A stretch of DNA of 64,000 nucleotides from an uncultured Victivallales bacterium (lineage in GTDB: Bacteria > Verrucomicrobiota > Kiritimatiellia > UBA8416 > CAYOBW01), in NCBI GenBank assembly GCA_964555035.1, contig CAZKRK010000002.1, positions 1,968 to 65,967 on the forward strand. The letters are read 5' to 3'. This document shows positions 17,619 to 58,211 of the stretch, in pieces (position 1 is the first letter of the stretch; every line of letters begins with the position of its first letter). The position numbers and the translations under genes are program-made. The notes beneath the pieces are model-generated. The model was not told where the DNA came from. It saw nothing but the letters and a program-made list of their open reading frames with translations, and searched no databases.

Positions 17619-17742
17619 GAGTCTCGTCTCCCGTTCAACAGAATGACCGTGCTGCTCATTGTTCGTTTTCCTTCTCATTCCGCCCGGAAAGCCACGGTGG
17701 CGCCCGGCCGAGCGACCGGCGTGGTCAATTGACTGCGTCGTT

Positions 17743-26773: not shown

Positions 26774-27450
26774 TTATGGCATTGACACTTCAAGTCGATA
26801 GTAGCGCTTGGGCACGGCGTTGGTGTCGATCATCATGTCATTCGTGCCGGATCCCGGCCGCGGGCCCTGCCCCAATATGTTGTCCCAGTTGGTCTGCATC
26901 AGGTCATCAATGAACTGCAGGACATACACCCGTCCCGTACTGGAATCGAAACGGACCGCCATGGAATTGGTCACCAGCAAACCCGTCAGACGGAGGTAGG
27001 AATTGGAGTCGGTTGGGTCCGTATCCGCAATGTACTCCTGAAGGTCCGAGTGTGGGTCACTGTCATGGGCCGTCGTGTCGTTGGCGTTGGTTGTGCTGCC
27101 CCAATACAGCAGCTCCCACGTATCGTCTATGCTGTCCCCGTCATCGGGCGGAAAGCCACCCGCATCTACTGTAAACCCGAAGTTGAGGTTCCCGACCCAG
27201 CAGCAGTTGGCGCCGGATTCCTCGGTGATGGTGCAGACGGTCTGCGGCGCGGTGAACACGTAATTATCGACGTCGGCGCCCAGACTATCACCGCCCACGC
27301 TCCAGGTACCCGAACTGAACCAGTCGAAATCAAGTCCCGTAAACCCGGCAAATGTCAGGCCGGTGGTCTCCGTTGCGGCAGCCCCATTCAGGCCGTAAAC
27401 CGCATTGCTCACTGAAAAGACCAAAGTCTCGTAGCTGTCGATGCGTTTCG
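26774..27450 (-). repeat. Direct DNA repeat (about 0.7 kb, high identity) encoding the C-terminal domain plus the end of the last module. The closest copy is at 32138-32830. Lower-identity copies lie at 36994-37450, 43486-43930 and 50250-50700.
   Basis: By eye, 27100-27300 and 32480-32700 are about 90% identical or better (example shared string: ccagcagcagttggcgccggattcctcggtgatggtgcagacggtctgcggcgc). The antisense ORFs in the track are near-duplicates: 27075..27263 versus 32376..32636, both ending QQQLAPDSSVMVQTVCGAVNT, and 27166..27351 versus 32539..32724. Confidence 0.7.
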
Positions 27451-30400
27451 GCTTACCTCCGCCATCACCCGTACTCGCCACACCAAAGTAGGCGGAGGCG
27501 TCTTTGCGTGTTGGGCGACATTCAGTCTTCGTAGTGGCGGCTTCGATCCATACCTCAAAGCTCAAGGTATCGGTATCGTTCCCGTCATCATCGAGATTGG
27601 CGTCAGTCACCGTGAACGTCCACTTGTATGGATTGGGAGTGCCGCCGATCGCCATGCTCAGCCACTCACCCGTGGGCGTGTTGGTGATCGCCAGCGATCC
27701 ATTCGTGCATGTAGCCGAAGCGGCGAAGCTGCCTCCGTCGGCAGCGCCAAAGTCCGTAATCAGAACCTGCATGCCGCCTCCCGACGGTGCCGTGACCGTG
27801 CCGGTCAGCGAAACGTCCAGTGGGTCGGTGTCAGGATCGTTGGATCCGATCTGCAGTGTGGCGGTGTGCGTCCCGGTATCTGTGCCCGGCGCATACTCCA
27901 CCGTCAGGTTGGTCTCCCCTCCGGCAGCTACCGTACCGGTGCCACCGGCAACGACCGAGAATTTGCCCGTATCCGTTCCACTGAAGCTAAGATTCGTGAT
28001 GGACAAAGGTAGTGTACCCACATTGCTCACCGTTACGACCAGGTTGCTGATTGTGTTTGTCGGCATCGTGCCGAAATCCAACGACGACGGAGACACCCGG
28101 ATATCGGGCTCGGATAGGGCCGTCGTATCGACCTGGAACGCGATGTTGCCGATACGCCACTGCCCAGATGCCACCTCAGCGGTCAATGTGCCCACGGGCG
28201 AAGCAAAAGTCAGATCGACATTATCGCCGCTCATCGTTTCGCCGCCTATGTTGATCGTCCCTCCGGAGAATCGGTCTATGAACACATAGGTAAACCCGAG
28301 GAACGAACCCATGTTGGCGCCCACAGGTTCCCCGTCCAACCCATAGGTCACGCTGCTGACAGAGAAGGTCAGTATTTCACCGGTATCCAGCCGATCATTG
28401 GCGCCTCCTGAATGGGTAAAGTAGTCGAATCCACTCCGCGTGGGCTTGAAGCCGCTGTTCGCCTCGATCGACACAAGCCACTGCATGGTGTCGTTCGCGC
28501 CGCCGACCCCGTTAAGGTCGGCACCGGTAATGGTGAAGGTCCAGATAAAGGGATTCGGACTGCTTCCGCCAGCCGTCGAAAGCCACTCGCCCGTCGGTGT
28601 ATTGGCAACCGTCACCGTTCCGTTGTCGGAATCCGCGTTAGCCCCTGGATTGAATTCATTCGCTTGGAAATCACTGATCGTGACCGTCGTATCCGGGAGG
28701 GACTTCGTGGCCGCGATCAGGGCAAGGTTCGTCGGGTTAGTATCCGGGTCATTGGACCAGATATGCAGCACGGCACTGTGCGTTCCCGGACTCGCTGCGG
28801 CCGAATATCGCACGGTGATGTTGGTCGAGCCCCCCGCCCCGACCACACCCACGCCACCCATGACGGAAAACCTACCCGCATCCGTTCCGGTGAAGGTGCA
28901 GTTGGTCACATTCAACACGGCCAGTCCCATATTGGATATCTCTGCCGCCAAGTCCCTGGTCCTGTTGACCGTGTTGCTGCCGAAATCCAGCGGCGAGGCC
29001 GTAATGATGGCGATGTCCGGCTCGACGGTATCCAGCGCCCGGCCTTGGAGTGAGACCTCCGCAGGGTTAGTGTCCGGATCCGGGGACCAGATCCGCAGTG
29101 TGGCAGTGTGCGTGCCCACCGCCGCGCCCGGCGCATATTGCACCGTCAGGTTGGTCTCCCCTCCGACGGCGACCGTACCGGTGCCGCTATCGACAATGGA
29201 GAACTTGCCGAAATCCGCTCCGGCGAAGGTCAGATTGGTGATGGGTAGCGGCTGGCCGCCCATATTGAGCACGTCTACGCTCAGATTGCTGGTCGTTCCG
29301 GTCAGGAGCGTTTTGTAGTCAAGCGCGGAGGGTGTCACATCGATGTCGAACGGAGGCAGGCTCGCCATGTCCACTCTAAACCCGAAGTTCAGGTTGCCAA
29401 CCCAGCAGACACCGCCGGCGGTGTTGGTCACGAGCAATTCGCTCTGATCCTCGCTCAGGACAAGATCGGCAACATCCTCGACGACACTGTCCCCACCGAC
29501 ACTCCAGACACCAGAGGCCCAATCGACGTCTCCGCCGCTGAAACCGTCGAAGATCAGACCGCCGGTCCGATTGGTGGGCCCGCCGTTCAGGCTGTAGGCC
29601 GCGTTGGTCACCGAGAATAGCAGGGTCTCGGTCTCGGCGAGCCGCGTCGGGTTTCCCCCGCCTTCGCCTTCGCTCCCCACCCCGAATCTCCAGGTCGAAC
29701 CATCACGGGTTGGTCGGCAATCCGCTCCCGAAGCCGTCGCCGTGACCCAGACTTCCCAGGTCAGCGTGTCGTCGTTATCGCCATCGAGGTCGGCTCCGGT
29801 AACCGTGAAGGTCCACCTATACGGGTTGGGTGATGATCCGGCTGTCTGCTCCAGCCAACTGCCGGTGGGCATGCTGCTGATGGTCAACGTCCCATTCGCA
29901 CAGGTCGCCGAAGGCGCATTGCCACCGCCATCGCCCGCGCCAAAATCGGTGACAAGGACCTTAGCACCGGGCGGTTCCGTGCCCGTCACAATGTTGGTCC
30001 AGTCAGAATAGCCCGAAAAACTCCCACCCAGGTTGGCGTTCGTCGCACCAACACGATAGAAGAATCGCGTGGACTCCATGCCCGTTTGGTGCACCCATTG
30101 CGTCGCCACAAGCTCGTGATGACCGGTCACCGCCGATCCCTCCTGATAGTACTCCACCACGAATCCCGTGCCGTGGTCGTCTTGGTCACTCCATCCGAGA
30201 ATGACTCTCGAGTCGTTTGTCGAGATGCCGGTGATCGTCGGGGTCTGGGCCGCCGATAGATCCGTTACCAAGCTCATCTTCGCTGATGGCATCGGATTCC
30301 ATACCTCATTACTGGCCATGAATCGCAGCCAATACTCGGTGTCCGCATCAAGCCCCGTAAGCCAGGCCGTAACCACACCGCCCGTGGTCACCGGAAGCGT

Positions 30401-31408: not shown

Positions 31409-31413
31409 AAAAA
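31409..31413 (-). other. Frameshift site: T5 homopolymer on the coding strand (AAAAA on the plus strand). The paralog implies T6.
   Basis: Frame N reads cag ccg ttt ttg ccc aga tca cgc tga. Frame C reads cca gcc gtt ttt gcc cag atc acg. Only about 10 codons are open in both frames, and they bracket the run. Confidence 0.6.
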
Positions 31414-35800: not shown

Positions 35801-36979
35801 GAAGTTAGTGACGTTCAGAACACCCGCACCGCTATTGATCACCGTCACGGCGCGATCGTCGGTCGTAGTGACCGCAATCACGCCAAAATCCAGTGGCGAG
35901 GTCGTAGAAATCGCAATATCGGGCTCAATGTCCGTAACCGTCCTCCCCCGCAGGGCCACATCCATCGGACTCGCCTCAACATCATCGGACCAGACATGCA
36001 CGGTTCCCGTGTGGGTCGCGTCGCTACTGCCCGCGCTGTAGCGTACTGTGATACTCGTCGACGACCCGACCGCAACACTGATCGGCATGCTTTCCAGAAC
36101 GCTGAAGGCATTCGATCCGCTGAAGGCGACGTTGGTTACGTTCAATACCCCCAACCCCGAATTGGTGATCGTCAGGATCAGGTCGCTGGTGGTGTTCGTC
36201 AGGATCGGCCCGAAATCCAGATCGTCGGGTGTCACGCCGATGACGGGAGACGCCGCAAGAACCACACTGAAATCGAAATTGATCTCGCCGGGCCGGGCAA
36301 ATCCTTTGGCTCCGGGTACCACGCTCATCGAGTTCACGGGCGTGCCGAAGACGGCCTCGGTGTGTGTGCCAACATCAAAGGTCTCGCCTCCGATGGTCGC
36401 ACTGTCGTTGCCCACTTCGAAGTCGCCACCCGCAAAGCCATCGAAGGTCAAGCCGGAAACACGATTGGTGGCTCCCCCGTCCAGGCTGTAAGCCGCATTG
36501 GCTACCGTGAAGGTCAGGGTCTCGTCGTTATCGATGCGACGCCGTTTGCTCGCATTATCGCCCTGACTTGCGACACCAAACTGCTCGGTATTGTTGTTCT
36601 TGGACGGCATCAGCAGCGGTCCCGGACCGGTCGCCGCCATCCAAACCTCCCAGGTCAAGACATCACCGCCGTCGCCGTTCAGTTGAAGGTCGGTGACACT
36701 GAAAGTCCATTTGAAGACGTCGTCTTTGTCGACGAGATCGTCCATCAGCCAGGAGCCCGTCGGCATATTTGCAATGCTCAGCGTGCCGTTGGCGCAAACG
36801 GCCGTGGGCCTACCGGCACCATCGTCGGCGGCGCCGAAATCAACGACGGAAACCGTTGTCGTAGTGGACTCCGCAAGAGCAACCACTCCGCCAATCCGCA
36901 ATAGGAGCAAACCTGCAAGCAACCCGCCGCGGGAAATGCTTGACCTCAAGAATGCACTATTCACCCTTCCGTCCTCCAC
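32138..36979 (-). CDS. Giant secreted protein (1613 aa) with an S1 sulfatase domain embedded mid-protein (about 33950-35263). Upstream of it: one novel module and five choice-of-anchor-D (ASH) domains. Downstream: a sulfatase-associated beta region, one ASH domain, a second novel module and the conserved C-terminal domain.
   Basis: Signal peptide-like GGLLAGLLLLRIGGVVALA. ASH repeats such as PDIAISTTSPLDFGVIAVTTTDDRAVTVINSGAGVLNVTNFTFSGADTGKFSVVSG...ATLHIWSNDSDSNPTNIVLQG. Sulfatase block: RPNIVLIYADDLGYTDLSCAGSEYY, GNCAPSRAALLTG, GKWHLGGD. C-terminus: DGDGIDDAWELKYFS...DTDPHTDLQEYITDTDPTDSNSYFRLTGL...RHYRIEVSLPPLP. Confidence 0.8.
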   Translation of the reverse strand: MEDGRVNSAFLRSSISRGGLLAGLLLLRIGGVVALAESTTTTVSVVDFGAADDGAGRPTAVCANGTLSIANMPTGSWLMDDLVDKDDVFKWTFSVTDLQLNGDGGDVLTWEVWMAATGPGPLLMPSKNNNTEQFGVASQGDNASKRRRIDNDETLTFTVANAAYSLDGGATNRVSGLTFDGFAGGDFEVGNDSATIGGETFDVGTHTEAVFGTPVNSMSVVPGAKGFARPGEINFDFSVVLAASPVIGVTPDDLDFGPILTNTTSDLILTITNSGLGVLNVTNVAFSGSNAFSVLESMPISVAVGSSTSITVRYSAGSSDATHTGTVHVWSDDVEASPMDVALRGRTVTDIEPDIAISTTSPLDFGVIAVTTTDDRAVTVINSGAGVLNVTNFTFSGADTGKFSVVSGTGAVGAEGVTSITVRYSPGSSAGNHSATLHIWSNDSDSNPTNIVLQGEAFVPAPDINIRTPSPLDFGQVGTSTTKTLAVKVDNTGVIDLDITNVTFSGTDTGKFSFVSGTGTIPVGGMSNLLIRFSPGTGLGTFSNATLHVLSNDPDTPSTNILLRGTGVASTPRPNIVLIYADDLGYTDLSCAGSEYYETPNIDHFATDAMVFTDAYAPAGNCAPSRAALLTGAYPPRTGIYTVNSADLGPLARRRLKPIGSGSKLTASHVTLAEALQANGYQTCHLGKWHLGGDPTPHGFDINIGGHSKGFPNSYFSPYQNVNLPDGLTGEHLPARLAEEACDWMETHKDTGPFFLNFCFYSPHGPWKSRYDIGQKYEAKPYNAEHFDVNYAGMVEAMDIAVGDILGYLDAAGLSSNTMVVFTSDNGTHKLHSNADPLRGGKSMLYEGGIREPFMVRCPGVTTGGTTNSTPVSQIDLYPTFLDYTSTEPPTGAGVQPLDGISLMPLLRAQAAPTRPIFWHFPTYIENSPGKDDPDSISIFFKGMPCTVMREGNLKLLEFFDTEHFELYDLSSDIGETNNLASTHPVVLEELVAKMQAWRTATEAPVPTELNPFWDPTTEHLPAGHVYSVPDPTDSTYRSVKGGVPGWWPTAPGPDFAAARTQQFVHAGSPKALPVAFANNGAGTLRLFWAPPIEIGGADSNYFSVASYSNNLESAANGHINLQLDTTLPGGGNRGYAVDLTIGCNDASDASEEVTVEVIYSNEPDIIAAPTALDFGTILTNTTSNLVVTADNVGSQPLSTTNFTFSGTNADRFSVVSGPGTVAVGASTNLTVRYTPGPDVGIHSATLHIWSDDPDSNPTNVVLTGTSLSSSIVTVHITDFGAANGGSGAPSATSDSGSLSIANTPTGEWFGPNDATDKDDTYKWTFTISNADLDGDGNDTDTLSWEVWITAAGGNGTVLKPSHKHEDDSMWFGVASSGDNNYSTRGRIDDNGESLTFSVTNAAYGLNGAAATETLGLTFAGFTGLDFDQFDAGTWSVGGDSLGADVDNYVFTAPQTVCTITEESGANCCWIGNLNFEFTVNAGGSPPGDGDGIDDAWELKYFSDTSTATDTSKSDTDPHTDLQEYITDTDPTDSNSYFRLTGLLATNSVAVYFDSSTGRVYVMQFIDDLMQTTWSNVPGQGPRSGSGANDVMIDTNDPLQRHYRIEVSLPPLP

Positions 36980-39900: not shown

Positions 39901-40011
39901 GTTGGTTGCCGCCTGAGCAGCAAAGGGAACACAACACACCGACAGGAGCATTACAGGAAGCAACCACCTCGCCGCACAATATGATCTTTGCGTCCAAATC
40001 CACATAAACAT
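36994..40011 (-). CDS. Large secreted S1 sulfatase (about 1005 aa) with C-terminal fn3-like domains, an unknown beta domain and the conserved C-terminal domain
   Basis: Track ORF 36994..40074. The probable start is MFMWIWTQRSYCAARWLLPVMLLSVCCVPFAAQA (signal peptide) at 40011. Sulfatase block: PNIILMMADDMGWGD, CAVCSPTRASCLTG, GKWHLG. The C-terminal fn3-like stretch (TVTLEWDTTNAPTGGWAFTNSSLP...GFVVEYYQEGSAVTGH) is shared with 26774-31312. C-terminus: DGDGILDAWELRYWSGLTNANETTFSDADPHTDLQEYITDTDPTDSNSYFRLTDL...QRFYRVEVSLPE. Confidence 0.8.
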   Translation of the reverse strand: MFMWIWTQRSYCAARWLLPVMLLSVCCVPFAAQAATNHPNIILMMADDMGWGDPSYNDGWINTPSLDSMASSGLRFDRFYAACAVCSPTRASCLTGRNPFRVGVENANAGHLGRDETPLSEVLDNAGYQCAHFGKWHLGTLTTLRNDSNRGEPGLTAHYSPPWHHQYDTCFATEAKVPTYHPMRMDQNGLPEPVDFADTNFYGTHYWTPPLDPATWTNSTGEGVAVAVTNNMSGDDSRVMMDRVVPFIQNAVASNQPFFAVVWFHTPHRPVMDPEQVSGADSPDAYTDAIQGMDTQIGRLRTELDSLGVRTNTMLWFCSDNGPENGPGKSGGLRARKRSLHEGGVRVPGLLEWPAKVPIARTTDYPCVTSDYYPTIIDALDLSVTNQKPIDGVSLMPLITNETFSSSRLSPIGFRFGNDRSWVTQQYKLISKNGGSSYELYDLLADVKETTNIAASEPEVAARLQLELETWIDAVNSDTVYVAPTVSGWSDAGVSNETVTTTNAQVYATLEVPSGSNTTVTLEWDTTNAPTGGWAFTNSSLPDTTGGIVTAWLTGLVADTEYWFRFTATNEVDGSDTSMATRVVTDLSVTQIPAISGILSNGTDIALEWVDWDDNGTGFVVEYYQEGSAVTGHQETASTNWTHYTGVQSARFFYRVGATNAEFGGSFSGYSDWTNQVTGEAVVSTGTTTVLTSPAFNTVDGHGDIPGDDSNNIDKFDVGGSDPAEFTTTLYTRGNGSDLDKRVRAYVKFDLASLGERQVTGATLSFRGYSLNDKGGGSYNTDLEVLRLTEDWATAADPFGPATTATINAGPIRTSGAPTTGTNFSVDVTVIVSNWISGAVNHGFFLKQATLTANNGLGMKIDGEGAIELEVRQAGTVDAGDTDGDGILDAWELRYWSGLTNANETTFSDADPHTDLQEYITDTDPTDSNSYFRLTDLRRTNSMAVTFDSSTERVYVMQSIDDLMQTNWDNVPGQGPRLGTGTNDMMIDSNDSLQRFYRVEVSLPE

Positions 40012-40120
40012 GTTTCGAATTGCTCGTACTTGATATGCTATTCTGTGCTTCACCTTTCCCGTCCTGTTAATCATCTTTTCTCAGCGAATCATTACTTCAC
40101 CCAAACTTCCGCACAAACCA

Positions 40121-43485: not shown

Positions 43486-46400
43486 TTACGGCCGTTCAAC
43501 CTCAAGCCGATAGTACCGCTGGGGAACGGCGTTGGTGTCGGTCATTGTGTCGTTCGGTCCCAGGCCGAAACGCTGCTCCTGGCCCGGCACGTTGCTCCAA
43601 ACCGAACCCTGTAGATCGTCGATGAACCGCATTCTGTACAACCGACCGCTGCTCGAATCGAAACAGACACGCACACCGTTCGTGTACCCTATGCTCTTGA
43701 TACGGAAGTACGATGCTGCATTGGTCGGATCGGTATCCGCGATGAACTCTTGCAGATCGGTGTGCGGGTCCGTGTCTGAAGATGTTGTCTCGTCCGCATT
43801 TGTCACGCTGTTCCAATGCTCCATCTCCCATGCATCGAGAATCCCGTCACCGTCGGAGTCCGGCAACAGCTCATCGGCGCCGATATCGGGCGCCATGCCC
43901 ATGATCCGTGTCTCGCCATCCATATCGTGAGCACCGTTATCGCCGCGGCTACGGCCGGCGTCTCGGGCGCCCGACGACGCCTGGAGATGGCCGTTCGTGG
44001 CCGACACTAACAGCGGGTCCACATCGTACGTCCCGTTCGTCTCGTGATTCCGATTCCGCCACCAGCTCCACGCATAGCCCTCGTTGCTGCCCCAACGGAA
44101 GGACGGGCCACCGTGCGTCGCATCATCGCAGTAGTACCAGTTGTAGTCGAACCGGGTGTTCGCCGGCGTGCTGCCGCTGCCGCCCGAACCGCCGACATAC
44201 ACGGCATCGCCGCCTTCGTTCTTGAGCGCGACTATCAGGTTGTTCTCGAACTCGCAGTCCGAGATGTGCCACTGCAGGCATATCTCGCCGGTGTAGTCCT
44301 TTGCCGTGTCGTTGTGGTAGAGCGTGTTGCCGATGAAGGTGCAGTACTGCGCATTACCCCGGCCACTGTCGTATCCACCAAGGAAGATGCCGCCGGTGTA
44401 ATTGCGGCAGATGAGGTTGTTCCGGACCGTGATGTAGGACGCGTACTTGCCACTGTGTTCGGAAGCCACTTCCAGCCCGATATCGCAATCGTGGATCGTA
44501 TTGCGCTCGATGACGATCTGCTTGCCGCCATCGACATAAATGCCGCCCGCGGAACGGTCGTAGCTGCCCCCATCCCGGTAGGCAGGATTGCCCGTGGTGT
44601 TGATATTGTAGACCAGGTTATCGGTACAGATCCCGTTCCTGGCCTGGTCGAGCGCTCCATCGGAGCAGGTGCCCTCGTGGCCGATGAAGTCGATGCCGAT
44701 GTTGTCGTTATCATGCACCGTACAACCGGTCACTTCGAAGCCGTCGATATTGCCGTTGAGCACGAGCGCTTCCGACGAACCGAGCTTGCAGTCGTGGATC
44801 TCGACGTTTCGGACCACCAGGTTGGTGATCGGATTCGAGGCGTGGTCGCCATAGACCCCGACGCCATGTGCATCGGCTCCAGTAACATAGCTGCCGCCGC
44901 CGTCGTAGTTGGACTCAATGCGGTGGATCTTCAGATTCCTCAGTCGTATAAACGAAGAGTCACCGTTGATGTACACGCCCATCGGCACCCTCCACCGCGT
45001 GGCGGTAATGAAATCGCGAATCTCCAACCCGTCCAGGGTGATGTAGTCCTGGCTGTTGAACGTGATCAGACCGTCCGTATCGCCGACGGTAATCCCCGTC
45101 CCGTCGATAACGGGAGTCTCGCCCGCATAGTTGGTAACGGTGATGTAGCCCCCGGCAGCCGACCCGGACCGGTACAGTGTAACCCGCTCGTTATAGACCC
45201 CGCCGCGGATGTAAAGCGTATCGCCGGCCATCACGTTGCTCACGCCATACTGAACAGTTGCCCACGGCGTGGCCAGCGAACCATCCCAGGTATTGTTGCC
45301 GTTGGTGGCCACGTAGTACCCCGTGGCACGCACTGTCGCCGCGCCCGTCAGTGGGATGTCCTTCGGGTTGTTGCTCGAGTCGTCGGACCAGATCGACAGT
45401 ATCGCCGCATGCGTCGCCGCATGGGTGGGTGCGTACTGAACCGTGATATTCGTCGATCCGCCCACAGCAACTGCACCGGTGCCGCTCAAGACGCTGTATT
45501 CGTTGGTGAACGCATCAAACGTGAAGTTCGTGATGTTCAACACCGCATCGCCCGAGTTCGTCACCATCACGCTCAGGTTGCTGGTCGAGCCGACCGTGTT
45601 CGTCCCGAAGTCCAGCGAGGAAGGCGTCACTCCGATGTGCGGAGCGCGTACCGGCGCGAAGGTAGCCACGACCGTCCGCGCCTGGTCCATGGTCAGATCA
45701 AGCGGGCTATCGTTCGTGTTGGCTGGCGGCACGTCGCCCATCCAGCCTGCGAACAGGTAGCCGCCATCCGGCGTAGCCGTGATCCCGGTCGCCGCTACCC
45801 CGTTGGTATACCAGCCGTTCACCACTCCGCCGTTCACCGACCCGTTCGCACCCGCGGACACCGCCAGCTCGTACTCGTTGGTCCACTGCCACGTCAGCGT
45901 GGAGTCGGCCGTGATGGTGAAGGTCGTGCTGTTGGCGGTCCCACTGGCCGGCGTGCTGCCCGTGCCCGCCCAGCCCGTGCAGGCCCAGCGCTGCCCGGCG
46001 GCCTCGTCGGCCGGTGTCGCCACGCTGTTGGTGACACTCGCTCCGTAGTCGTTGGTATGCACGCCCACCGTCGGATTCGGCGAACCGTGTGCCGATACAA
46101 TCTCCAGCGTATTGGACGCGAGCGGCGCGGGTGGGCCCGTTCGGAGTTGGAAGTCGAAGCCGCCGCCTCCCCTGCCGCTTCCCGCAGTTACCTCGGTAAG
46201 CAGGGATTGGAGGTTGGTGAACACCAGGCCGGGAAAGTACGCTCCGGATCCTCCAGTAGAGAACCCCTGTCCGCCGACGGTACCGGCGGACTGCTTGAAA
46301 AGATGGAAGTCGGCTCCGGTGAAACCGAGGAACTCACCGGTCCGGTCGGTGGCGGCGGCACCGTTCAGACCGAAGGTCACCGTGGGCACCGTCAGCGTCA

Positions 46401-49400
46401 GCGTCTCGTTCGCTCCTCCCGCCGCCACTCCAGCCTGAATCCGGTTGTTAACTCCGCCCTGCACGGCAAAGTACATGTTCTGGCCCGCCCCGGTCTCGAG
46501 ATTGCCTCCCGACGTCGTGAACACCAGGTCGAACTGCATGCTGTCGTTGGCAGTGCCGCCCCCGTCGAGGTCGGCTCCCGTGACCTGAAGCGTCCACGTT
46601 ACGGGGCTGGGGGAAGGCAGTCCGCCCGGATCGCTCGACCCCACCAGGGCCAGGGCTCCGTTGTCGGCGCCGGCGCCGGCGTTGGTCGTCGCGGTCATGT
46701 CGTCGTTGATGTCCGCAACCGTAATCGTCGTGCCAAACGCAGACACGGCGTCGCCCCGAAGGCCAACGCTGACAGGGTTGTCATTCGGATCGTCGGACCA
46801 GATGTAAAGCGTACCAGAATGTGACGTCACGCTCGCGCCCGCTTCGTACTGTACGGCGATCTCCGTTGTTGCACCGACGGCAACCGCCCCGATGCCGCTC
46901 AGTACCGAAAACGCGCTCGATCCGCCGAACGTGAAGTTGGTGATGTTCAGCACGCCGTCCCCGCCGTTGGTAACCGTCACGCTCAGATGGATAATCGTAC
47001 CGGTACCGACCACCCCGAAATCCAGCGGCAAAGGGGTCAGAATGCCAATGTCCGGACCGGGCATTACAGCCACCACGACCTGCAGATCGCCGTCCATGCT
47101 ATTGGTCAACGCAAAGCCGTACTCGCCCGGGTGTGAGCCCAGCGCAAAGCTATCGGAGGTCAGTCCGAGCGAGGTGCCGGTGACGAGATCGTAGGTGCCC
47201 AGCGCCATGCCAGCGGCTTCCGACAGGTTCACGGTCACAGCCCCGTCGGTGGTCACGGCCCCCCCCACAGCAATCGAGTCTGCCGTCACGCCGATATCGA
47301 ACGTCAACGCGCTACCCGCCTCCAGTGTCAGGTTGCTGGACAGTGAAAGGGTCCCCAAGGCAACATCGCCGCTCAGGTCCACGGTGCCCACAACGGTCAC
47401 CGCGCCGGCCACCGTGCCGTTGCCGGAGAGTGTGCCTGCCACGCCAACCGTAACGGTGCCCGTGCCGCCGATCGAACCGTCGACATCGAGCGTGCCGCCA
47501 TGAACCGTGGTCATGCCAGAGTAGGTGTTGGCGCCGCCGAGCACGACTGTGCCCTCATTGGTCTTAGTCAGATTACCCGTCCCCATCACGACGCCCTGGA
47601 CATCAACCGTACGCGACGGGCCGACATTCAAGCTCAGCGTATCGCTGCCCAGGTCGATCATGACCCCTGACTCGACCGAGAGATCGCCGCCGCCCGTCAC
47701 GTCCCACCTCTGGTCGCCCGCAACGATGCACGTCCACGGATGGGAGGTCCCCACAAACATGAAATCCTTCGTCGCCACACTCATGTCCATACCGACAACG
47801 TTGCTGGTTGCAACAGGTTGGACGGTCAACGTATTCGCCGGATTGTTGGGACATCGGATTCCGACAACCGTAGCGGGCGACCGTACCACGATCTGAGCGA
47901 TGTCGAAGGAACCCTGGCGCATGTCGAGACGCGTCTGCGAGTTGTTGTCACCATCGAAAACCGCCGCCTCGCTGGCGCTGTCAGGAATGTCATTCGGATC
48001 CCAGTTGAGCGTCCTCCCCCACAGCGGATCGCCGTTGCCGCCGGTGAAACGTCGCTCCGTCAGTGTCGTGTAGATCATGATCTCGCCGGTCAGGACCAGC
48101 TTCCCGCCCTTCCGGTCGGACACCGTGACACTGAAACCCTTGATCCCGGCGCTGTTCCAGGTGTTGGTGAGCACCGGATGGCTCGGATGTACCACGCCGT
48201 CTGAGAAGTCCCAGAAGTACGACAGCTCATCACCGTTGGGATCGCCCGCACTGACGGTCATCACCACTGCTTCCCCGACATCCCCACTCGCAGCTACTTC
48301 GAGCGTACCGGTAGGCGCCAGGTTCCCGGCGAACGGCCCATAGTTCACGGCCACGTCGATCCACTCATTGGGCGTTGTCCCGCCGCGGCCAATCGGTGTG
48401 ATATGGATATCGTGGGTCGTATCTGACCAGGTCTCCCCCACCGGCAGGCCCGCGTCGTTGATCGTACCGCCCGGGTGCAGATCCAGCAGGTTGCCATTAA
48501 CGCTCGACGAGCGCACCCACAGCACCTGGATTCCCTTCTCGTAGTACTGGAAGGTGTCGTTGGTCCATAGCTGCCGGTAGCCAACATGGTAGTAGTTGCC
48601 CGCATTGCGATAGACCTCCACCGCGCGCATTGTATTGGTATCGGTGTCGCCATGGTCCATGCGATAGATCCGATTGGTCGCCGATGTGCTGATGGAGTGG
48701 ACCTTCGGTAACTCCAGCCAGTTCAAGATCCTTTTCTGCCTGGCGCTGAAATGCCCTGTTGGGAGGTCTCCTCGCCCCATGTTGTCGGTATTGTCCCCGT
48801 ATTCCACGCTGGATCCAGTGGGATCGACCGGGTTGGCGCTACCGGCAGGTGGCAGCCACCGATTCGCGTGGTACAATCCGAAATTGTGGCCAAGCTCATG
48901 AGCTATCGTCTTCACGTTGCTGTAGCGCAACCAGACCCTCTGTCCGCCAATGTAGGCGAATCCAGACCAGCTCACCCCAATCGCCCCATGGAGCACGAGA
49001 ACATGATCGTAATCGTCAAGCGTGACCCCGGCTGCCGCCATCGCCTCATCGTGCAACTCCACGCGATTGTCTGCGTAGTACGTGCTGTTACTTGACATGC
49101 GGTAGACGTTCGTGTCGATCGTGGAGGCAAAGCCCGTCTTGTGCCACGACATCTCGTCGTAGAAGTTGCTCACCGTATTCATCCGCTCGCTCATGAGCGT
49201 GTGGTCATAGTTCGTGACCGGTCTGTCCGAAAAGTCCACCCTGATGAGGACCGCGGTCTTGACCGTCTCCGTCCAGACGCCCTGAACGGCCGGAAACACC
49301 CCTTCAGCCGCGGACGTGTTCCCGGCGGAATCGAGCATCAGAGCCAGCACAAGCCCAGACCCGTTGTGCGGACCGATGCTGCTCTGCTCGAATCCCCGCG

Positions 49401-50249: not shown

Positions 50250-53200
50250 TTACGGAACCGCCGGCACCGACACCTCGACACGGTAGGACCGCTGAGGCGG
50301 ATCGCTGCTGTCGATCATCATATCGTTTGTACCCAATCCCAACCGCGGCCCCTGCCCGGGTACGTTGCTCCAGCTCGGCCACAGTAGGTCGTTTATGAAT
50401 TGCAGAGTGTAGACACGGCCGGTGCTGGAATCGAAGGTGACGGCCATGGAATTCGTCATCACCAGCCCCGTCACCCGGAAGAACGAGTTGGAGTCGGTCG
50501 GGTCCGTATCGGCGATGTACTCCTGCAAGTCGCTATGCGGATCCGTGTCGAAGCGCGATGTGTCGTCCGCGGTGGTCGTATTCCCCCAGTACCGAAGCTC
50601 CCATGCATCGAGTATCGCGTCACCGTCCGAGCCGGGACCCCCTGGCGGCTGAACATGAAACTCGAAATTGAGGTTGCCCGGCTTCGCGTTCCCTGTCCCG
50701 GATGGTCTGAAGATCGACAGCGCCTGCTGCGGAGCGCTGAACACGGCGTCGGTCGTGTCGACGGTGAACGTATCCCCGCCGTATGTCCACGGGGACGTGT
50801 TGTAGTTGTCGAAATCGCCGCCTGTGAACCCTGCGAAGGTCAGTCCATCGGTCTGGTCGGCCACCGCGCCGTTCAAGCCGTACAGGGCATTCGTCACCGT
50901 GAAGGTCAGGGTCTCGTTCCAGTTGAGCCGTTTCCTGTTGGCCAGATTCTCGCCGGTACTGGCAACCGTGAACCACTTGTCGTTGGCGTTCTTCGCCGGA
51001 CAGCAGTCCGTCTTGGTCGACGTTGCCGTGATCCAGACCTGCCACGTCAGCGTGTCCGTATCGTTGCCGTCATCGTCGAGGTTGGCCCCGGTAACCGTAA
51101 ACGTCCACTTGTGCGGGTTGGGGCGAGTAGGGACATCGTTGTTCAGCCATTCACCCGTGGGCGTGTTGGCGATGCTCACCGATCCGTTGTCGCAGCTCGC
51201 GGCGGCGGCGCCGGCAGGCGTGCCACTGGCCCCGCCGAAATCCGTGATGTGAACCACGGACGCCAGCGTTGCCCGCGCTTCGCCGTCGAGCGTGACGGTT
51301 GCCGGATTGGTGTTCACGGCATCGGACCATACGTTCAGCGTCCCGCTATGCATAGCCACACCCGTTGGCGCGTAGCGCACGGTGACGTTCGTCGAGTTCC
51401 CGGCGGCGAGGCTGAATGGTGTGCTCTCCAACACGGCAAACGCATCTGAGCCAGTGAGGGTGAAATTGGTAACGGTCAATGCGGCGCCACCTGTGTTTGC
51501 CACCGTCACCGTCAAGTCATGGGGCGAACCGACCAGCCGGGGCCCGAAATCGAGCGACGACGGGACAAGACCGATGTAGGGATCGTTCGGGAGTTCCCTG
51601 AGCTGGTAACCCATCAGCAGGATCCACTTGGTTCCGGTCATATCGATATCCTGCGCCACCCCACTGGCCGTGAAGCTGCCCTTCACGGCATAGGCCGGTC
51701 TGTGGGTTATTGCCCCGCTGCCGGCACCGGTGCCGGCATGCGTTATCGTGTCTCCTCCCCGGTTGGGAATATCCGTGTGGAAGAGCTGGACCGAATACAC
51801 CGTCCCGGCGGTCAGCCCCGTCACGGTCAGCGTACCGGCAAGCTCCACGTTCATAAACCTGTCCATCATGGCTTCGAAATCCCCCCCGATGCCCCCCTCG
51901 CTGTACGTGTCCCCATTGACGTTAACGACATTCCACCCGGGATCGACTGACGTCTGCGCCATGAACGTGACGCCATTGACCGTGCGATTGTCGCCTGCAC
52001 TCGGCGTGTAGTTGACGGCCCTGACAAGCGTGCCGACCGTGCTCACGACACTGTCCCCATTGGCCGCGATTCCCTCCGGCGCGCTCCACGTGATCGTCGT
52101 CGTCTGCATCGCCTGCGCACTCAGTGCAATGTTTGTGGGGTTGCTATCCGGATCGTCGGACCAAACGGACAGAGTGCCGGTGTGTGTGCCCACGCCTGTG
52201 GGCATGTATCGCACGGCAAAGGCAGTCGACCCGCCAGCCGCAACGGTGCCGGTGGTGACGGCGACGGAGAATTCGTTCGAACCGTCGATCGTCATGTTGG
52301 TGATGCTCAACGGCCCCGTGCCGCTGTTGGCCACGATCAGGTCCAAGGTGTTGGTTGTGTTGACTGTTCTGACACCAAAATCGAGGGGAGGTACGTTCGC
52401 AATGGAGATGTCGGGCGTCGGGACATAAGACGATCCCTGCAACAGAACGTTGGTCACGGGCGTGTCCGTGTCATCAGACCCGATGTGCAGTGTCCCCGTA
52501 TGCGAGCCCGCGTTCGCGCCCGGGGTGTACGCCGCGGTGATGTTGGTCGATGCGCCCACATCAACCACGCCGGACCCACTCGTCACGGAGAACACGTTCG
52601 ATCCACTGAATGTGAGATTGGTGATACTCAGTGGGCCTGTCCCCATGTTGGCCACCGTAATGTCCAGGGAGTTGGTCGTGTTGACGGGGATCGGCCCGAA
52701 GTCAAGGGGCGATCCGACCGTGACAGCGATCTCGGGAGTCGGAACCACGCCCTCGCCCTGCACCGTGATATTCGTGGGGTCAGTATCAGGATCGTCCGAC
52801 CATATCGACAGGACGGCGGTATTGGAAACCAGAGCCGTCGGGGCATACTGCACCGAGAGGTTGGTCGATGTGCCGGAAGCCAGCGTGCCGGTGCCCCCAC
52901 TGACAACAGAGAAGACTCCGGGAGTTGCTCCGCCCCATGTCAGGTTCGTAATGCTCAGCAGCGCCGACCCGACATTCCGCACGGTCACATCCAGCGTCCG
53001 GGTCAGGTTGGTGCCAACCTCGCCGAACTCCAGGGGGGACTCGGTAATGATGGCAATGTCGGGCTCCGGCTCCTTCCCCATCTGGAAACTGATGTTGCTG
53101 AGACGATAACTCGCACCGGATTCCGCGCCGGCTGTCAGTACCGATTGCGCTGAACTGAAGGTTACCTTGAATGCATCGTTGCTGACCGTCTCGCCGCCCA

Positions 53201-55466
53201 CCAGCGCGTTGCCGCCGCCCAGGTCCTCCACGTACGCAGCCGTAAAACCATAGAAATGCCCTGTCTGCGGCGCCCCGCCATTCAGCACATAGCTCACCGT
53301 GCCGGGCGTGAACGTAACGACTTCGTCGCCATCGATACGGGTCGGATCGTTCGTACCTACCTGAAAGTAGGCGATCTGCGCATTGGTCGCCGTCCTGTAT
53401 CCGGCGATAAGCTCGCTCACCCCGGCGCCGGCCAGATCCGACTTCAGTTCAATATCCAACGTAATGCTGTCATTGGCGCCGCCCACGGCATCCAACACCG
53501 CATTGGTAATGGTGAATGTCCACGTGGTCGTGAACGGATCGGCGGCAGGGAGCGAGTTCAGACTGGACCCCGTGATGACCACGTCACCGTTGTCGGAGAT
53601 TGTGTCGAACGTTCCGTTGAAATCGGTCGATGTCTCCGCCTGGAAATACCGAACCGTGACCGGCCGCGAAGGCTTCATCGCGTCCGCATCCGCCCGGGAG
53701 TCCGGATCCAGACCGTTCGCCAGTTCATAGGCATTCTGCATTCCGTCGGCATCGTTGTCGGGATGACGCTCGGACAACGCTGAAGCGACCCATGTCCGTA
53801 GGTCATCGAACTTCTCCACCAGGTCGACGCCCACTATGGCCAGAGCCTGCGTATTGGCAACATCCGGATCCGCCTGGTTCGACAGTAGATCAACGTCCTC
53901 GTGAATGTCCTCAGCTTGGCGGAAAAGCCGGTGGCTGTTGCCAAAATCGATTAACTTCCATCCATCCATGGTCTTCATGATTTCATCCGGATCGTAGGCG
54001 CCCGCGCTCATAAAGGGTCGATTGTTCTCCCTGCGCTTCTGTTGACCGCGCAGCAGGTTGAGGAACGACTCGCCGTCGGGGGCCGTGCTATCCGGCAGTT
54101 CGACATGCAGGTATGCCGCGATCGTAGGGAAGATGTCCACCTGGGAAATGGGGTCGTTCACCATGTATCCGGCCGGTGCCTGCCCCGGCCACCTCACGAT
54201 AAACGGAACCCTGTGTCCGCCATCCCAAGGATCTGTCTTTCTGCCTCTCAAGGGACCCGTCTGTTGGCCTGTCGTGTTGTTAGCAGACTGATCCGTGCCA
54301 TTGTCAGAGGTCAGAATTACGACCGTATTGCTGCCGAATCCGTTGGTGTCAATGGCCGAGATGAAGCTTCCCACCCGGTCATCGACCTCCGCCATGAACT
54401 TGGAATACGTCGTCAGCCCCGGCAGGTTCTGATACGGCGGGGTTACCGCCCAGGGCTTGTGCGGCGAATGCATCGCAATATAGGCGAAGAACGGATCCGT
54501 GTCGCCCGACGCCGCCCGGTTCGCGATGTATTCCTCAACATCGGCAACCAGCTTCGGACCGACCTCCACCGACTTGTACGACGGATCCCCAAGAGACCCC
54601 GTTCCGTCGCCGGCCCCATACACGGTCGAAGCCAAATCCTCCTTCGTGAACCAGACAAACGTGTCCGAATTGCGCGCATTGCGGTATCCGCCGGCGCCCC
54701 CGTTAAGCGTGGCATCCCAGAACTGTATGCGGTCGTCATGCAGATACGCATACGGTCCCCGATTGATGGCCGCCGGCATGCCTCGGAAATAGTCAAAGCC
54801 ATGATCCGTGGCGTGTAGTTCGACTGGCCGTTCCCAGTCAACGATCGACTCGTCAGCGGGATTGTCGTACTGCCCCCCCACGCCAAGACGATCGCCACCG
54901 GTTGTATAAAACGCGCCGCCCATGTGCCACTTGCCGAAAGCGGCCGTATCGTAGCCCTCTGCCTTCAATAGCTCCGCGAACGTAACGTCATCGACGCGCG
55001 GCACTTCGTCCCCGCCGATCGTCCCGCCATATTGATGCGTGACCTTGTGGAACTCCCGCCAGTGGTACTTGCCGGTGAGCATCGCATAGCGGCTCGGTGT
55101 ACAAACCGCGCAGGAAGAGTGTCCCTGCATGAACATAACCCCTTGCGCGGCAAATGCATCCATTTTCGGGGTACGCACACCGGGCGCCGTGCCATACACA
55201 TCGCCGTAGGCAGAAATCTCTCCGAACCCCATGTCGTCCGCATAGATGATCACGATGTTGGGCTTGACGGGAGTCGGCGCGAAATCCGGCATCGACGCCG
55301 GATCATTCGTGGCGGACCCGAAGTATGCTTCCGCTTCATCGCAATAGCTATCGCCGTCCGTATCGACGAACGGAAACGCCGGCCCGGGATCCTGCCCCAT
55401 ACTCACCGGCACAACAACCGTTGACAGCACAAACAAGGCAAGGACGCCCCTCATCTTCATATTCAC
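50250..55466 (-). CDS. Giant secreted protein (1738 aa): N-terminal S1 sulfatase (about 53790-55265) + novel module + four choice-of-anchor-D (ASH) domains + 'ITW' beta domain + ASH + second novel module + conserved C-terminal domain
   Basis: Signal peptide MNMKMRGVLALFVLSTVVVPVSMG. Sulfatase block: PNIVIIYADDMGFGE, SSCAVCTPSRYAMLTG, GKWHMGG. ASH repeats PDIAIITESPLEFGEVGTNLTRTLDVTVRNVGSALLSITNLTWGG...VLSIWSDDPDTDPTNITVQG. C-terminus: DGDAILDAWELRYWGNTTTADDTSRFDTDPHSDLQEYIADTDPTDSNSFFRVTGL...QRSYRVEVSVPAVP. Confidence 0.8.
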   Translation of the reverse strand: MNMKMRGVLALFVLSTVVVPVSMGQDPGPAFPFVDTDGDSYCDEAEAYFGSATNDPASMPDFAPTPVKPNIVIIYADDMGFGEISAYGDVYGTAPGVRTPKMDAFAAQGVMFMQGHSSCAVCTPSRYAMLTGKYHWREFHKVTHQYGGTIGGDEVPRVDDVTFAELLKAEGYDTAAFGKWHMGGAFYTTGGDRLGVGGQYDNPADESIVDWERPVELHATDHGFDYFRGMPAAINRGPYAYLHDDRIQFWDATLNGGAGGYRNARNSDTFVWFTKEDLASTVYGAGDGTGSLGDPSYKSVEVGPKLVADVEEYIANRAASGDTDPFFAYIAMHSPHKPWAVTPPYQNLPGLTTYSKFMAEVDDRVGSFISAIDTNGFGSNTVVILTSDNGTDQSANNTTGQQTGPLRGRKTDPWDGGHRVPFIVRWPGQAPAGYMVNDPISQVDIFPTIAAYLHVELPDSTAPDGESFLNLLRGQQKRRENNRPFMSAGAYDPDEIMKTMDGWKLIDFGNSHRLFRQAEDIHEDVDLLSNQADPDVANTQALAIVGVDLVEKFDDLRTWVASALSERHPDNDADGMQNAYELANGLDPDSRADADAMKPSRPVTVRYFQAETSTDFNGTFDTISDNGDVVITGSSLNSLPAADPFTTTWTFTITNAVLDAVGGANDSITLDIELKSDLAGAGVSELIAGYRTATNAQIAYFQVGTNDPTRIDGDEVVTFTPGTVSYVLNGGAPQTGHFYGFTAAYVEDLGGGNALVGGETVSNDAFKVTFSSAQSVLTAGAESGASYRLSNISFQMGKEPEPDIAIITESPLEFGEVGTNLTRTLDVTVRNVGSALLSITNLTWGGATPGVFSVVSGGTGTLASGTSTNLSVQYAPTALVSNTAVLSIWSDDPDTDPTNITVQGEGVVPTPEIAVTVGSPLDFGPIPVNTTNSLDITVANMGTGPLSITNLTFSGSNVFSVTSGSGVVDVGASTNITAAYTPGANAGSHTGTLHIGSDDTDTPVTNVLLQGSSYVPTPDISIANVPPLDFGVRTVNTTNTLDLIVANSGTGPLSITNMTIDGSNEFSVAVTTGTVAAGGSTAFAVRYMPTGVGTHTGTLSVWSDDPDSNPTNIALSAQAMQTTTITWSAPEGIAANGDSVVSTVGTLVRAVNYTPSAGDNRTVNGVTFMAQTSVDPGWNVVNVNGDTYSEGGIGGDFEAMMDRFMNVELAGTLTVTGLTAGTVYSVQLFHTDIPNRGGDTITHAGTGAGSGAITHRPAYAVKGSFTASGVAQDIDMTGTKWILLMGYQLRELPNDPYIGLVPSSLDFGPRLVGSPHDLTVTVANTGGAALTVTNFTLTGSDAFAVLESTPFSLAAGNSTNVTVRYAPTGVAMHSGTLNVWSDAVNTNPATVTLDGEARATLASVVHITDFGGASGTPAGAAAASCDNGSVSIANTPTGEWLNNDVPTRPNPHKWTFTVTGANLDDDGNDTDTLTWQVWITATSTKTDCCPAKNANDKWFTVASTGENLANRKRLNWNETLTFTVTNALYGLNGAVADQTDGLTFAGFTGGDFDNYNTSPWTYGGDTFTVDTTDAVFSAPQQALSIFRPSGTGNAKPGNLNFEFHVQPPGGPGSDGDAILDAWELRYWGNTTTADDTSRFDTDPHSDLQEYIADTDPTDSNSFFRVTGLVMTNSMAVTFDSSTGRVYTLQFINDLLWPSWSNVPGQGPRLGLGTNDMMIDSSDPPQRSYRVEVSVPAVP

Positions 55467-56192: not shown

Positions 56193-58211
56193 TCATCTCA
56201 CCATCAGGACCATGCCCTCGGGCTTGGGCGGAACGTCGCCGGTCGTGGAGACCTCGAAGACAACATTCCCGAACCGGAACCTGCCGCCCGGCATCGAATC
56301 CACGACCAGCACGTCGGGTTTGGTGCTGAAGGTCACCGCGTCGGAGCCCGAGACCGTTTCGCCGCCGATCACCGCCGTCGTGAAGGGCCCGCCCGCGCCG
56401 CCCCAATTGAGCACGCTGCCCCGCACGAATCCGCGGAAGCTCCCCGTCCCGCTGGGGCCGCCGTTCAGCGAATACGTGACTTCACCTGGCGTGAACGTCA
56501 GGCGCTCGCCGTTCTTGTAGTCGATCCGTAAGGCATCGCCGGGGCCCATGATCCAATGGGCCGTGCTGACAGGAACATCCACCACGACGTTGGCACGGAT
56601 GTCGCAGTTCCCCCCGTCCTCGCGCTCTCCCGTCATCGTCATGTCCCAGGTCATGCTGTCGTTGGCGAAGCCGACGTCGTCGAGCGTGGCATTGGTAAGT
56701 ATGAACGTCCAGGTCACGGAGGAAGTGGGCGCCGACGCGGTCGGCAGTTTGACACCCGAAATCGCCACCGTACCGTTGTCTGCCACCGTCGAGAACTCGC
56801 CCCAGGGCTCGTCGCTGGTCTCCGCCTGAAACTCGGTAATCGTGATGTAGTCCGCGTATCTCGCTCCCGTGGGCGGATCGTCCTGCTGGTAGTTCATCAA
56901 CGCGCCGTCGGCCGCGTAGCCAAAGACGGCGGCGTGGTAGGTCGTGTTCGTGGTAAGGCCGGTAACTTCGACGCTTGCGCCGGTGCCGGAAAAGACGACG
57001 TAGGCGTCCCCGAGCTCTGTGCCGAGACTGCCGTATCTCGCATTCGTCGCGTAGGTCGTGTCGTCCTCCGGCACCCCTGTCGGCGCGGGCCCCTGCCGCA
57101 CGAGCACCAGGCTCCCGTCGCAACCCGCGTTCGTCGTCCAGGAAACCGTCATCGAGGTGTCCGTGAGCGAGGTAAGCGCAACACCCGAGGCCTGTATGGG
57201 CTCTGTCAGGAAGCTGCTCTCGTTGGTCGACCAGACGACGCCTTCCGCCGCGTTGCTGGCCCAGCCGAGGAAGTTGTACACCGTTCCGACGACAAGGCCG
57301 GTTACCGTGCCTGAGTACACCTTGGGCGGCGGAATGGTCGGCGAGTCCACGATGACATGCATGTTCGTCGTCACGTCACCCGGCAGGTGCCAGCCGATGC
57401 CGTAGTTCGTGATGCCCGCTCCCGACTGGATCGTGGCGCCCAGCGTCGCTGAGGCGGTCGAGATGTCCGCCGCGGTCAGCGTGTCGACGACGATGTCCGT
57501 GATAGGCGCATTCGTGCTGACCTGGAAATCGATGTCATAGAGGCGACATCTCTGATTCCGCGTGCCCACCTGCCCGCTAAGCCATTCCGCCCGGAGGGCT
57601 TTGGCGCCATGCAGGTCCACATCGCCCGTCCCGGCAGCCGTGGACGTGGTCAGCCCACCATCCAGGGTCCACGCGGAACCACCGGTCTTGTGCCGGTGCG
57701 TCATCGCCGTGGTGAACCCCACAAAAGACCCGGTGTTCGTCACGCCGCCGTCAATCGTGTAGGTCACCGGCCCGGCTATGAACTCCAGGACTTCCCCCGC
57801 GTTGATCAGGTTGTCCCCGGTATCGCCGGCGGACTTTACACCGAACTGGCCGTCGGGTCCCGCCGTATGGACGACCGGGCTCGACAATCCCCCTGCCTGG
57901 CCGAAGGGAGCCAACGACGCGGCAAGCGTGATGGTCCACGTCATGGTATCGTCGTCGTCCCCCACGGTGCCGCCGAGGTTCGCGTTGGTCAGGCTGAACG
58001 TGTAGACGACAACCGGGTCGGTGTCCAGAGCGCCCGCCGTCACCTGGTTCGTCAGCGTGCCCACGTTGTCACTCGTGGCGTAAGCCCCGTCATTCCCCGA
58101 GTCCCAGTCGGAGACCGTGACGGTCGCCGCGCCGGCCTGCAGTGCGAGTGCGAATAGCCCGACCGTCAGGCCGACGCCAAGTCTAAGTCCAAATGTATGC
58201 ATCCGATTCAT
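56193..58211 (-). CDS. Secreted protein (about 672 aa) with two copies of the novel ~170-aa module flanking an fn3-like domain. The C-terminus ends ...PPKPEGMVLMVR.
   Basis: Track ORF 56193..58268. The probable start is MNRMHTFGLRLGVGLTVGLFALALQAGA (signal peptide) at 58211. Module example: SVTWTFILTNATLDDVGFANDSMTWDMTMT...ERLTFTPGEVTYSLNGGPSGTGSFRGF. fn3-like block: SMTVSWTTNAGCDGSLVLVRQGPAPTGVPEDDTTYA...TTYHAAVFGYA. Confidence 0.65.
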   Translation of the reverse strand: MNRMHTFGLRLGVGLTVGLFALALQAGAATVTVSDWDSGNDGAYATSDNVGTLTNQVTAGALDTDPVVVYTFSLTNANLGGTVGDDDDTMTWTITLAASLAPFGQAGGLSSPVVHTAGPDGQFGVKSAGDTGDNLINAGEVLEFIAGPVTYTIDGGVTNTGSFVGFTTAMTHRHKTGGSAWTLDGGLTTSTAAGTGDVDLHGAKALRAEWLSGQVGTRNQRCRLYDIDFQVSTNAPITDIVVDTLTAADISTASATLGATIQSGAGITNYGIGWHLPGDVTTNMHVIVDSPTIPPPKVYSGTVTGLVVGTVYNFLGWASNAAEGVVWSTNESSFLTEPIQASGVALTSLTDTSMTVSWTTNAGCDGSLVLVRQGPAPTGVPEDDTTYATNARYGSLGTELGDAYVVFSGTGASVEVTGLTTNTTYHAAVFGYAADGALMNYQQDDPPTGARYADYITITEFQAETSDEPWGEFSTVADNGTVAISGVKLPTASAPTSSVTWTFILTNATLDDVGFANDSMTWDMTMTGEREDGGNCDIRANVVVDVPVSTAHWIMGPGDALRIDYKNGERLTFTPGEVTYSLNGGPSGTGSFRGFVRGSVLNWGGAGGPFTTAVIGGETVSGSDAVTFSTKPDVLVVDSMPGGRFRFGNVVFEVSTTGDVPPKPEGMVLMVR

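Follow-up and report, generated by a model that had tools for sequence, protein, structure and literature searches.

A rare, unnamed all-beta module repeated in sulfatase fusions and adhesin-like proteins of an uncultured Victivallales bacterium: a putative glycan-binding domain

Extracellular sulfatases of bacteria in the Planctomycetes-Verrucomicrobia-Chlamydiae (PVC) group take part in degrading sulfated polysaccharides of algae, which are recalcitrant, and little is known about how these enzymes locate their substrates. Accessory binding modules with a beta-sandwich fold are a familiar kind of domain. Those catalogued in CAZy as carbohydrate-binding modules (CBMs), such as a porphyran-binding CBM (8xmz), CBM6 (2cdo), CBM22, CBM29, CBM35, and CBM4, measure ~130-160 aa and are carried by glycoside hydrolases (GHs) or lyases. 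Other CBMs occur in RTX adhesins, where they bud from a "split" immunoglobulin-like (Ig) domain on substrates of the type I secretion system. The PA14-type CBM of AhLap, an RTX adhesin of Aeromonas hydrophila, has micromolar affinity for fucosylated glycans (PMC12077191), and comparable sugar-binding domains of Vibrio cholerae and Aeromonas veronii adhesins bind fucose (PMC10865825). Here, we describe an unnamed protein module that most resembles such accessory modules and is repeated in a 64,000-nucleotide stretch of DNA from an uncultured, presumably marine Victivallales bacterium (contig CAZKRK010000002.1, positions 1,968 to 65,967), which we refer to as the window. In our best reading, the module folds on its own as an extracellular all-beta domain of ~205 residues and founds a rare and unnamed family. 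Its function may well be a non-catalytic, lectin- or CBM-like binding to the glycan substrate, a proposal that we hold with slightly less than even confidence.

A sequence-only reading of this DNA had pointed out an unnamed repeat of ~170 aa in at least 11 copies. A hidden Markov model (HMM), built in two rounds from the window copies and searched against all six-frame open reading frames (ORFs) of the window, bore out the repeat, with exactly 11 domains (domain E-values of 1.3e-27 to 1e-86) and nothing beyond them with E < 0.5. Six minus-strand ORFs carry the copies, rather than seven proteins as had been thought, and each copy is ~200-215 aa long. The exemplar originally chosen (36409-36850, 147 aa) has the minus-strand translation that had been described for it (SVVDFGAADDG...GGDFEVG), and its plus strand is full of stops, but it is incomplete, missing the last ~57 C-terminal residues of the full copy at 36239-36856. 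When it was extended to 230 aa and used in phmmer, further copies were retrieved in ORFs 26774-31312, 32138-36979, and 50250-55466 (domain E 1e-23 to 1e-53), with similarity spanning ~205 residues, well past the end point first proposed. The 11 copies, labeled by the letter of their carrier protein, are as follows.

B1, 29345..29959, minus strand: HMM E 1.8e-80; protein B (ORF 26774-31312) aa 452-657
B2, 28097..28687, minus strand: HMM E 3.5e-72; protein B aa 876-1073, with ASH/HYDIN Ig domains on its flanks
B3, 27140..27766, minus strand: HMM E 1e-86; protein B aa 1183-1391
C1, 36239..36856, minus strand: the exemplar at full length, HMM E 2.9e-75; protein C (sulfatase fusion, ORF 32138-36979) aa 42-250, first domain after the signal peptide
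C2, 32516..33160, minus strand: HMM E 1.5e-81; protein C aa 1274-1489, preceded by the last ASH/HYDIN Ig domain and followed by the TSP3-like C-terminal tail
F1, 46120..46728, minus strand: HMM E 8.3e-54; protein F (ORF 43486-50190) about aa 1155-1357
G1, 53055..53660, minus strand: HMM E 5.3e-63; protein G (sulfatase fusion, ORF 50250-55466) aa 603-805; 41% identity to H2
G2, 50628..51254, minus strand: HMM E 3.5e-85; protein G aa 1405-1614, with the C-terminal tail directly after it
H1, 57504..58124, minus strand: HMM E 3.1e-52; protein H (ORF 56193-58268), directly behind the signal peptide; 40% identity to I1
H2, 56223..56846, minus strand: HMM E 1.9e-60; C terminus of protein H, with nothing but the short tail PKPEGMVLMVR after it
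I1, 61755..62357, minus strand: HMM E 1.3e-27; protein I (giant, adhesin-like; ORF 58434-63947, which runs off the window); aa 2022-2222 of its full-length form P0004

The counts for B, C, and G (three, two, and two) agree with those of the sequence-only reading, as do the two copies in H and the one in I, although the ORF of H is 56193-58268 rather than 56193-58211 and that of I is 58434-63947. In F, where one or two copies had been suggested, a second was searched for and not found. A 12th copy lies beyond the window, at aa 63-247 of the full-length database form of protein I (P0004, 3328 aa). Pairwise identity among the 11 copies ranges from 22 to 71%, and only 12 positions are invariant across all of them. 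B1, B3, C1, C2, and G2 form a tight subfamily marked by FGA, PTGEW, and WEVW; B2 is intermediate, and G1/H2, H1/I1, and F1 are divergent. The consensus read by eye at the outset (FGA, PTGEW, DxDGNDTD, WEVW) describes the tight set, and B2 in part, but not G1, H1, H2, F1, and I1, which share just 22-41% identity with the FGA subfamily and with each other. At the other extreme, C2 and B3 are 71% identical, and the 3' ends of the B and C genes, which encode the latter half of the module and the C-terminal tail, are 81% identical over 606 bp of DNA.

The module has no counterpart among named families. Isolated copies searched at a maximum E of 10 gave only chance matches, far under the cut-offs, in both Pfam (E 0.15-0.26) and NCBIfam (best E 0.078), and a Pfam scan of the whole carrier proteins left the module regions uncovered. 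Two profiles, one from the 11-copy alignment and one from a family alignment of 40 sequences, retrieved nothing at E <= 10 among all chain sequences of the PDB. The initial impression that no named family was at hand is upheld, and a match to a known family with E below 1e-5, which had been put forward as decisive against it, was found in none of Pfam, NCBIfam, and the PDB. We also found no description of the module in the literature. The sequence family is undescribed, without a Pfam, NCBIfam, or PDB relative.

It is also very rare. Searched exhaustively with hmmsearch, 1.84 billion representative proteins yielded 85 matches at E <= 1e-3, 20 at E <= 1e-10, and 9 at E <= 1e-30, amounting to about 70 true clusters, and patterns derived from close copies found no relatives in 185,579 GTDB species genomes. 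The best four matches are proteins of the source organism itself or of a near-identical strain; P0001 agrees with protein B in its length and in where its modules lie, P0002 is part of G, and P0003 is H with one substitution. About 11 of the 85 are He_PIG (PF05345) repeat proteins that align over profile positions ~33-84 only, resembling the module at a hairpin (WTFTVTxADLDGxxxxDTLTW). We rejected membership in He_PIG, as the similarity covers only ~50 residues, its score is built from 5-15 repeats, and no copy of the module matches PF05345; the resemblance is at the level of a motif.

The largest group, about 48 of the 85 matches, comprises small proteins of 215-265 aa with a signal peptide, the module, and a PEP-CTERM tail (TIGR02595/PF07589), such as WP_143183992.1 of Rubritalea squalenifaciens and MBT3279762.1 from a metagenome-assembled genome (MAG) of the Phycisphaerales. 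Because the module is the entire mature globular part of these proteins, we infer that it is displayed at the cell surface. This part is homologous to the window copies (hmmsearch E 1e-26 to 1e-4), shares the motifs [LI]D[LI]DGxGGxND[ST], GExLxF, LNGG, and FxGFTG with them, and is itself unnamed, with the tail alone exceeding a Pfam or NCBIfam cut-off. Weak NCBIfam matches of these homologs to FxDxF, floc_PepA, and THxN lie far under the cut-offs and are mostly driven by the tail, so we did not regard them as membership. On the R. squalenifaciens contig L005 (7210-9588), the PEP-CTERM homolog P0015 adjoins a gene for an extracytoplasmic function (ECF)-type sigma factor and is followed by a second gene of 241 aa that the module profile does not match. 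The module proteins of the window differ in lacking a PEP-CTERM tail. They end in a TSP3-like region with [FY]YR[ILV]xV or in a short hydrophobic tail, and a C-terminal PEP motif with a hydrophobic helix and an Arg cluster was not found in them (their ends read ...YYRLEVSMP, ...PEGMVLMVR, and ...PTLFIVK).

The PEP-CTERM class (TIGR02595) is tied to exosortase and exopolysaccharide (EPS) systems. With most family members belonging to this class, the module might attach to an exopolysaccharide or envelope glycan made by the producer itself and would then retain secreted enzymes and PEP-CTERM proteins in the matrix of the cell instead of on the substrate; the modules are acidic, as is the remainder of the carrier proteins, which would suit such a role. 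We nevertheless consider self-retention of this kind unlikely. The PEP-CTERM homologs have an anchor of their own, which makes the module more likely the functional head, while the window proteins already own a separate conserved C-terminal tail that resembles a sorting or anchor element, and no EPS-synthesis genes were seen in the window.

To gain insight into the fold, two copies were modeled with AlphaFold2. The model of B3, built from the 11-copy alignment, is a single domain of 14 strands without helices (predicted local distance difference test score, pLDDT, 88.0; predicted template modeling score, pTM, 0.87). An independent run for C1 with the 40-sequence family alignment gave a pLDDT of 90.2 and a pTM of 0.88, with all five models at >= 88.9 and in the same strand order. 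As predicted, the module is a beta-sandwich of the broad lectin/CBM class without a close solved relative; Foldseek found nothing in the PDB at E <= 1e-3, and its cupin, lectin, and CBM matches were insignificant. Nearly all structural neighbors of the predicted structure are carbohydrate binders, and remote as the similarity is, they point to carbohydrate as the probable ligand. Conserved across the family are [LI]D[LI]DGxGGxND[ST] (Asp 97%), R[IL]DxGExLxF (Glu 87%), LNGG, a GG turn, and FxGFTG (F 93%, G 89%, F 92%). Conservation falls in the strands and three short loops, whereas loops 31-46, 79-92, and 99-108 are indel-rich and variable in both sequence and length. This pattern agrees with a binding module, as in CBMs whose loops set their specificity.

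The almost invariant Asp and Glu (Asp66 and Glu113, B3 numbering) could also be catalytic, and since beta-jelly-roll enzymes such as GH16 and PL7 are known, the module might be an undescribed glycan hydrolase or lyase of this fold. We regard this as very improbable, as it would be unusual for a catalytic domain to occur two or three times in one chain and as an add-on to bona fide enzymes. A spacer or scaffold without any ligand, comparable to the surrounding Ig-type domains, is a somewhat better but still improbable alternative. In long multidomain proteins, the module does alternate with Ig-like domains of the ASH/HYDIN type, and its conserved residues are mostly aromatics of the core and glycines, located in strands and turns. 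However, the same proteins already contain spacers, and a spacer would make little sense as the only globular domain of ~48 small surface proteins. Polar and charged positions (the Asp and Glu above and the N/D-D-S/T loop) are, moreover, near-invariant even in very divergent members, which a purely structural role would not explain well.

The best structural neighbor of the module is a putative CBM of an RTX adhesin of Aeromonas salmonicida (PDB 9q5u). Structural alignment gives 14-15% identity and covers only about two thirds of the module, and profile searches of the PDB at E <= 10 detected no sequence similarity between the two; Foldseek does not rank 9q5u for the module, and solved PA14 CBMs score poorly in it. 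The settings differ as well. While RTX-adhesin CBMs emerge from a split Ig domain, the module stands in line with its neighbors, either behind an N-terminal signal peptide or between ASH/HYDIN domains, and Pfam found no RTX repeats in the carrier proteins. Compared with the CAZy beta-sandwich CBMs, the module is larger (~205 aa, 14 strands). No Pfam CBM model matches it, and neither sequence homology nor clear structural homology placed it in CBM4, CBM6, CBM22, CBM29, CBM35, or similar families. A CBM is generically defined in CAZy by a discrete fold within a carbohydrate-active enzyme; the models of the module show a discrete fold, and its carriers are S1 sulfatases and adhesin-like proteins in a sulfatase/fucosidase locus, not classical CAZymes.

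Within the window (G+C 60%), the carriers belong to a run of very large minus-strand ORFs that extends from 21.8 kb to the end. Their Pfam domains include Sulfatase/SGSH_C, Ig domains of the ASH/HYDIN/DUF1573 type, fn3-like, PKD, and PATR domains, an M11-like peptidase, and InlB B-repeats; protein F alone combines the M11-like peptidase, PKD, PATR, ASH, and InlB B-repeat domains with its single copy. The module had been thought to sit always next to ASH arrays, but protein H has two copies and no ASH/HYDIN match in Pfam. In C and H, the module stands directly behind the signal peptide, as in the PEP-CTERM homologs. Proteins B, C, D, E, and G are sulfatase fusions, and together with the free-standing enzymes, the locus encodes at least eight sulfatases, as well as two GH43-like proteins and the following.

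2053-3537: GH29 alpha-L-fucosidase
6402-8435: GH59 enzyme
15313-16953, 18873-20483, and 20420-21781: free-standing sulfatases
21815-26764: CotH/LTD protein

From this gene content, the locus looks like one for degrading a sulfated glycan that contains fucose or galactose. One window sulfatase has its nearest named relatives among Planctomycetota (76% identity, partial), Phycisphaerales, and Akkermansiaceae MAGs, which is in keeping with the PVC group. Protein B has its sulfatase domain divided over two frames. The N-terminal part of the Sulfatase domain is encoded by ORF 31393-31932 (179 aa), and the frame of B is open from 31420, has a GTG start at 31312, and begins at position 204 of the Sulfatase profile. 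The overlap between these frames indicates a frameshift. Since the public ENA contig has identical gene calls, the split (31312-31932) could be a genuine pseudogene or frameshift, or else an assembly error common to both records. Interspersed with the sulfatase and glycosidase genes are two others, one for an HpiC1-cyclase-like (CBM-fold) protein (16926-17678, minus strand) and one for a basic protein of 1378 aa (pI 9.5) with a DUF6288 domain (11295-15431, minus strand).

In other organisms, the module has been fused independently to several kinds of domains. It occurs with a sulfatase and Big_2 in P0021, whose locus encodes three further sulfatases; with a beta-helix in P0039, by Pfam scan, and at a matching position in the putatively similar P0068; with PA14 and Big_9 in P0012; and with DNRLRE/CBM96 and a TSP3 tail in P0006. 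Considering its multiple copies between Ig-like spacers, its presence on enzymes that act on polysaccharides, these independent fusions, and its occurrence as the sole head of small surface proteins, a binding module is the interpretation that fits best. The module would be a ligand-binding "head" set between ASH/HYDIN spacers on S1 sulfatases, a peptidase/beta-helix protein, and two adhesin-like proteins, and it would keep enzyme or cell attached to a polysaccharide substrate. Judging from the locus, this substrate could be a sulfated glycan containing fucose or galactose. The two to three copies per protein, and 12 per locus, might provide avidity, and the divergent loops might provide a range of specificities.

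A second organism, however, has the module in a different setting. It encodes an H-like protein with two modules (P0005) and an I-like giant of 3065 aa with one (P0010), and its gene order (L002/L003/L004; JGI metagenomes 3300009128, 3300013118, and 3300009314) is I-like, H-like, a 130-aa gene, and a CotH/LTD protein. The ~30 kb of sulfatase-fusion genes that stand between the H and CotH/LTD genes in the window are absent there, which suggests that the sulfatase fusions were inserted or expanded in the window's locus. The module may accordingly be an adhesin head for a non-glycan ligand, attaching cells to particles, other cells, or proteins, with the link to sulfatases being a secondary recruitment. 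This conserved core of a giant adhesin-like protein, a two-module protein, and a CotH/LTD protein favors such a role, as does the module being the only domain of many PEP-CTERM surface proteins. We nonetheless judge it to be unlikely, if the most credible of the alternatives, because its independent combination with sulfatase, beta-helix, and DNRLRE/CBM96 domains in other organisms and the carbohydrate-binding structural neighbors are better suited to carbohydrate targeting.

Several observations call for caution about glycan binding directed at a sulfated substrate. In the second organism, the module is found solely in the I/H-like pair beside the CotH/LTD protein, so the ancestral context was apparently adhesin-like rather than sulfatase-related, and the ancestral ligand need not have been a sulfated glycan. 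The structural similarity to known carbohydrate binders is remote, and even 9q5u is no more than a putative CBM. With a pI of 4.05-4.35, the modules are strongly acidic, which would be awkward for direct binding of sulfated polyanions unless cations bridge the contact. The conserved F51, F94, Y124, F139, F142, and F196 all lie in predicted strands, which is better explained by a hydrophobic core than by a sugar-stacking surface. DxDGND is found only in the FGA subfamily, and the family as a whole conserves just G-x-x-[ND]-D-[ST] and one Glu. The CBM-like role suggested by the sequence-only reading is putative, with backing from the architectures and fold neighbors and little from the two arguments originally made for it: the conserved W/F/Y residues taken as a hint of glycan binding include F/Y positions that are probably core, and the case for calcium built on D-x-D-G-N-D is weak because the motif is confined to one subfamily. 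A more specific proposal, which we consider rather doubtful, is a new CBM family found mainly in the PVC group that binds a marine sulfated glycan (fucoidan-like or a sulfated galactan), possibly with a cation held by the invariant Asp/Glu, and that targets sulfatases as well as forming the lectin head of PEP-CTERM proteins.

If the module does represent a new binding family, it would offer a handle for CAZy-type annotation of extracellular sulfatases, a candidate probe for sulfated glycans, and a first suggestion of what dozens of small PEP-CTERM surface proteins, at present annotated as "hypothetical", might do. This would be relevant to specialists in CAZymes and marine glycans and would overturn nothing; if the module is merely structural, it would be a routine new "domain of unknown function".

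The C termini of the large proteins in this locus also share sequence. About 120 aa are common to seven proteins, encoded by ORFs 21815-26764, 26774-31312, 32138-36979, 36994-40074, 43486-50190, and 50250-55466 and, in divergent form, 40121-43468. This tail begins with TSP3-like DxDGDGxxDxWE / DTDPxxD repeats, followed by ~75 aa that end in [FY]YR[ILV]xV, and its only family matches are to TSP3_bac and, weakly, to Amuc_1099. Similar endings (...F[LF]R[LV]...) are present in otherwise unrelated module-bearing proteins of other organisms (P0021, P0026, P0039, P0044, P0068, and P0085). The tail may serve as a C-terminal domain for sorting or anchoring that is specific to the PVC group. Proteins H and I end instead in short hydrophobic and basic tails (PKPEGMVLMVR at 56193-56222 and AAPTLFIVK at 58434-58470), and their homologs P0005, P0009, and P0010 end alike (GGMFLLVR, PEGMLLLAR, and APTVFIFK). 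Such tails, much shorter than the PEP-CTERM signal, might represent a C-terminal sorting signal, either degenerate or of a distinct type.

Lastly, a second unassigned module of ~170 aa (ITW...NGVxF...LTGLTxGxxYxVQLFH), without a Pfam match in any of its stretches, occurs in G (aa 1123-1290, ~51597-52100), in I (aa 952-1127 of the window ORF), and in E (aa 71-187). The copies in G and I are 36% identical (blastp E 2.6e-18), and that in E is more weakly similar (E 2e-4).

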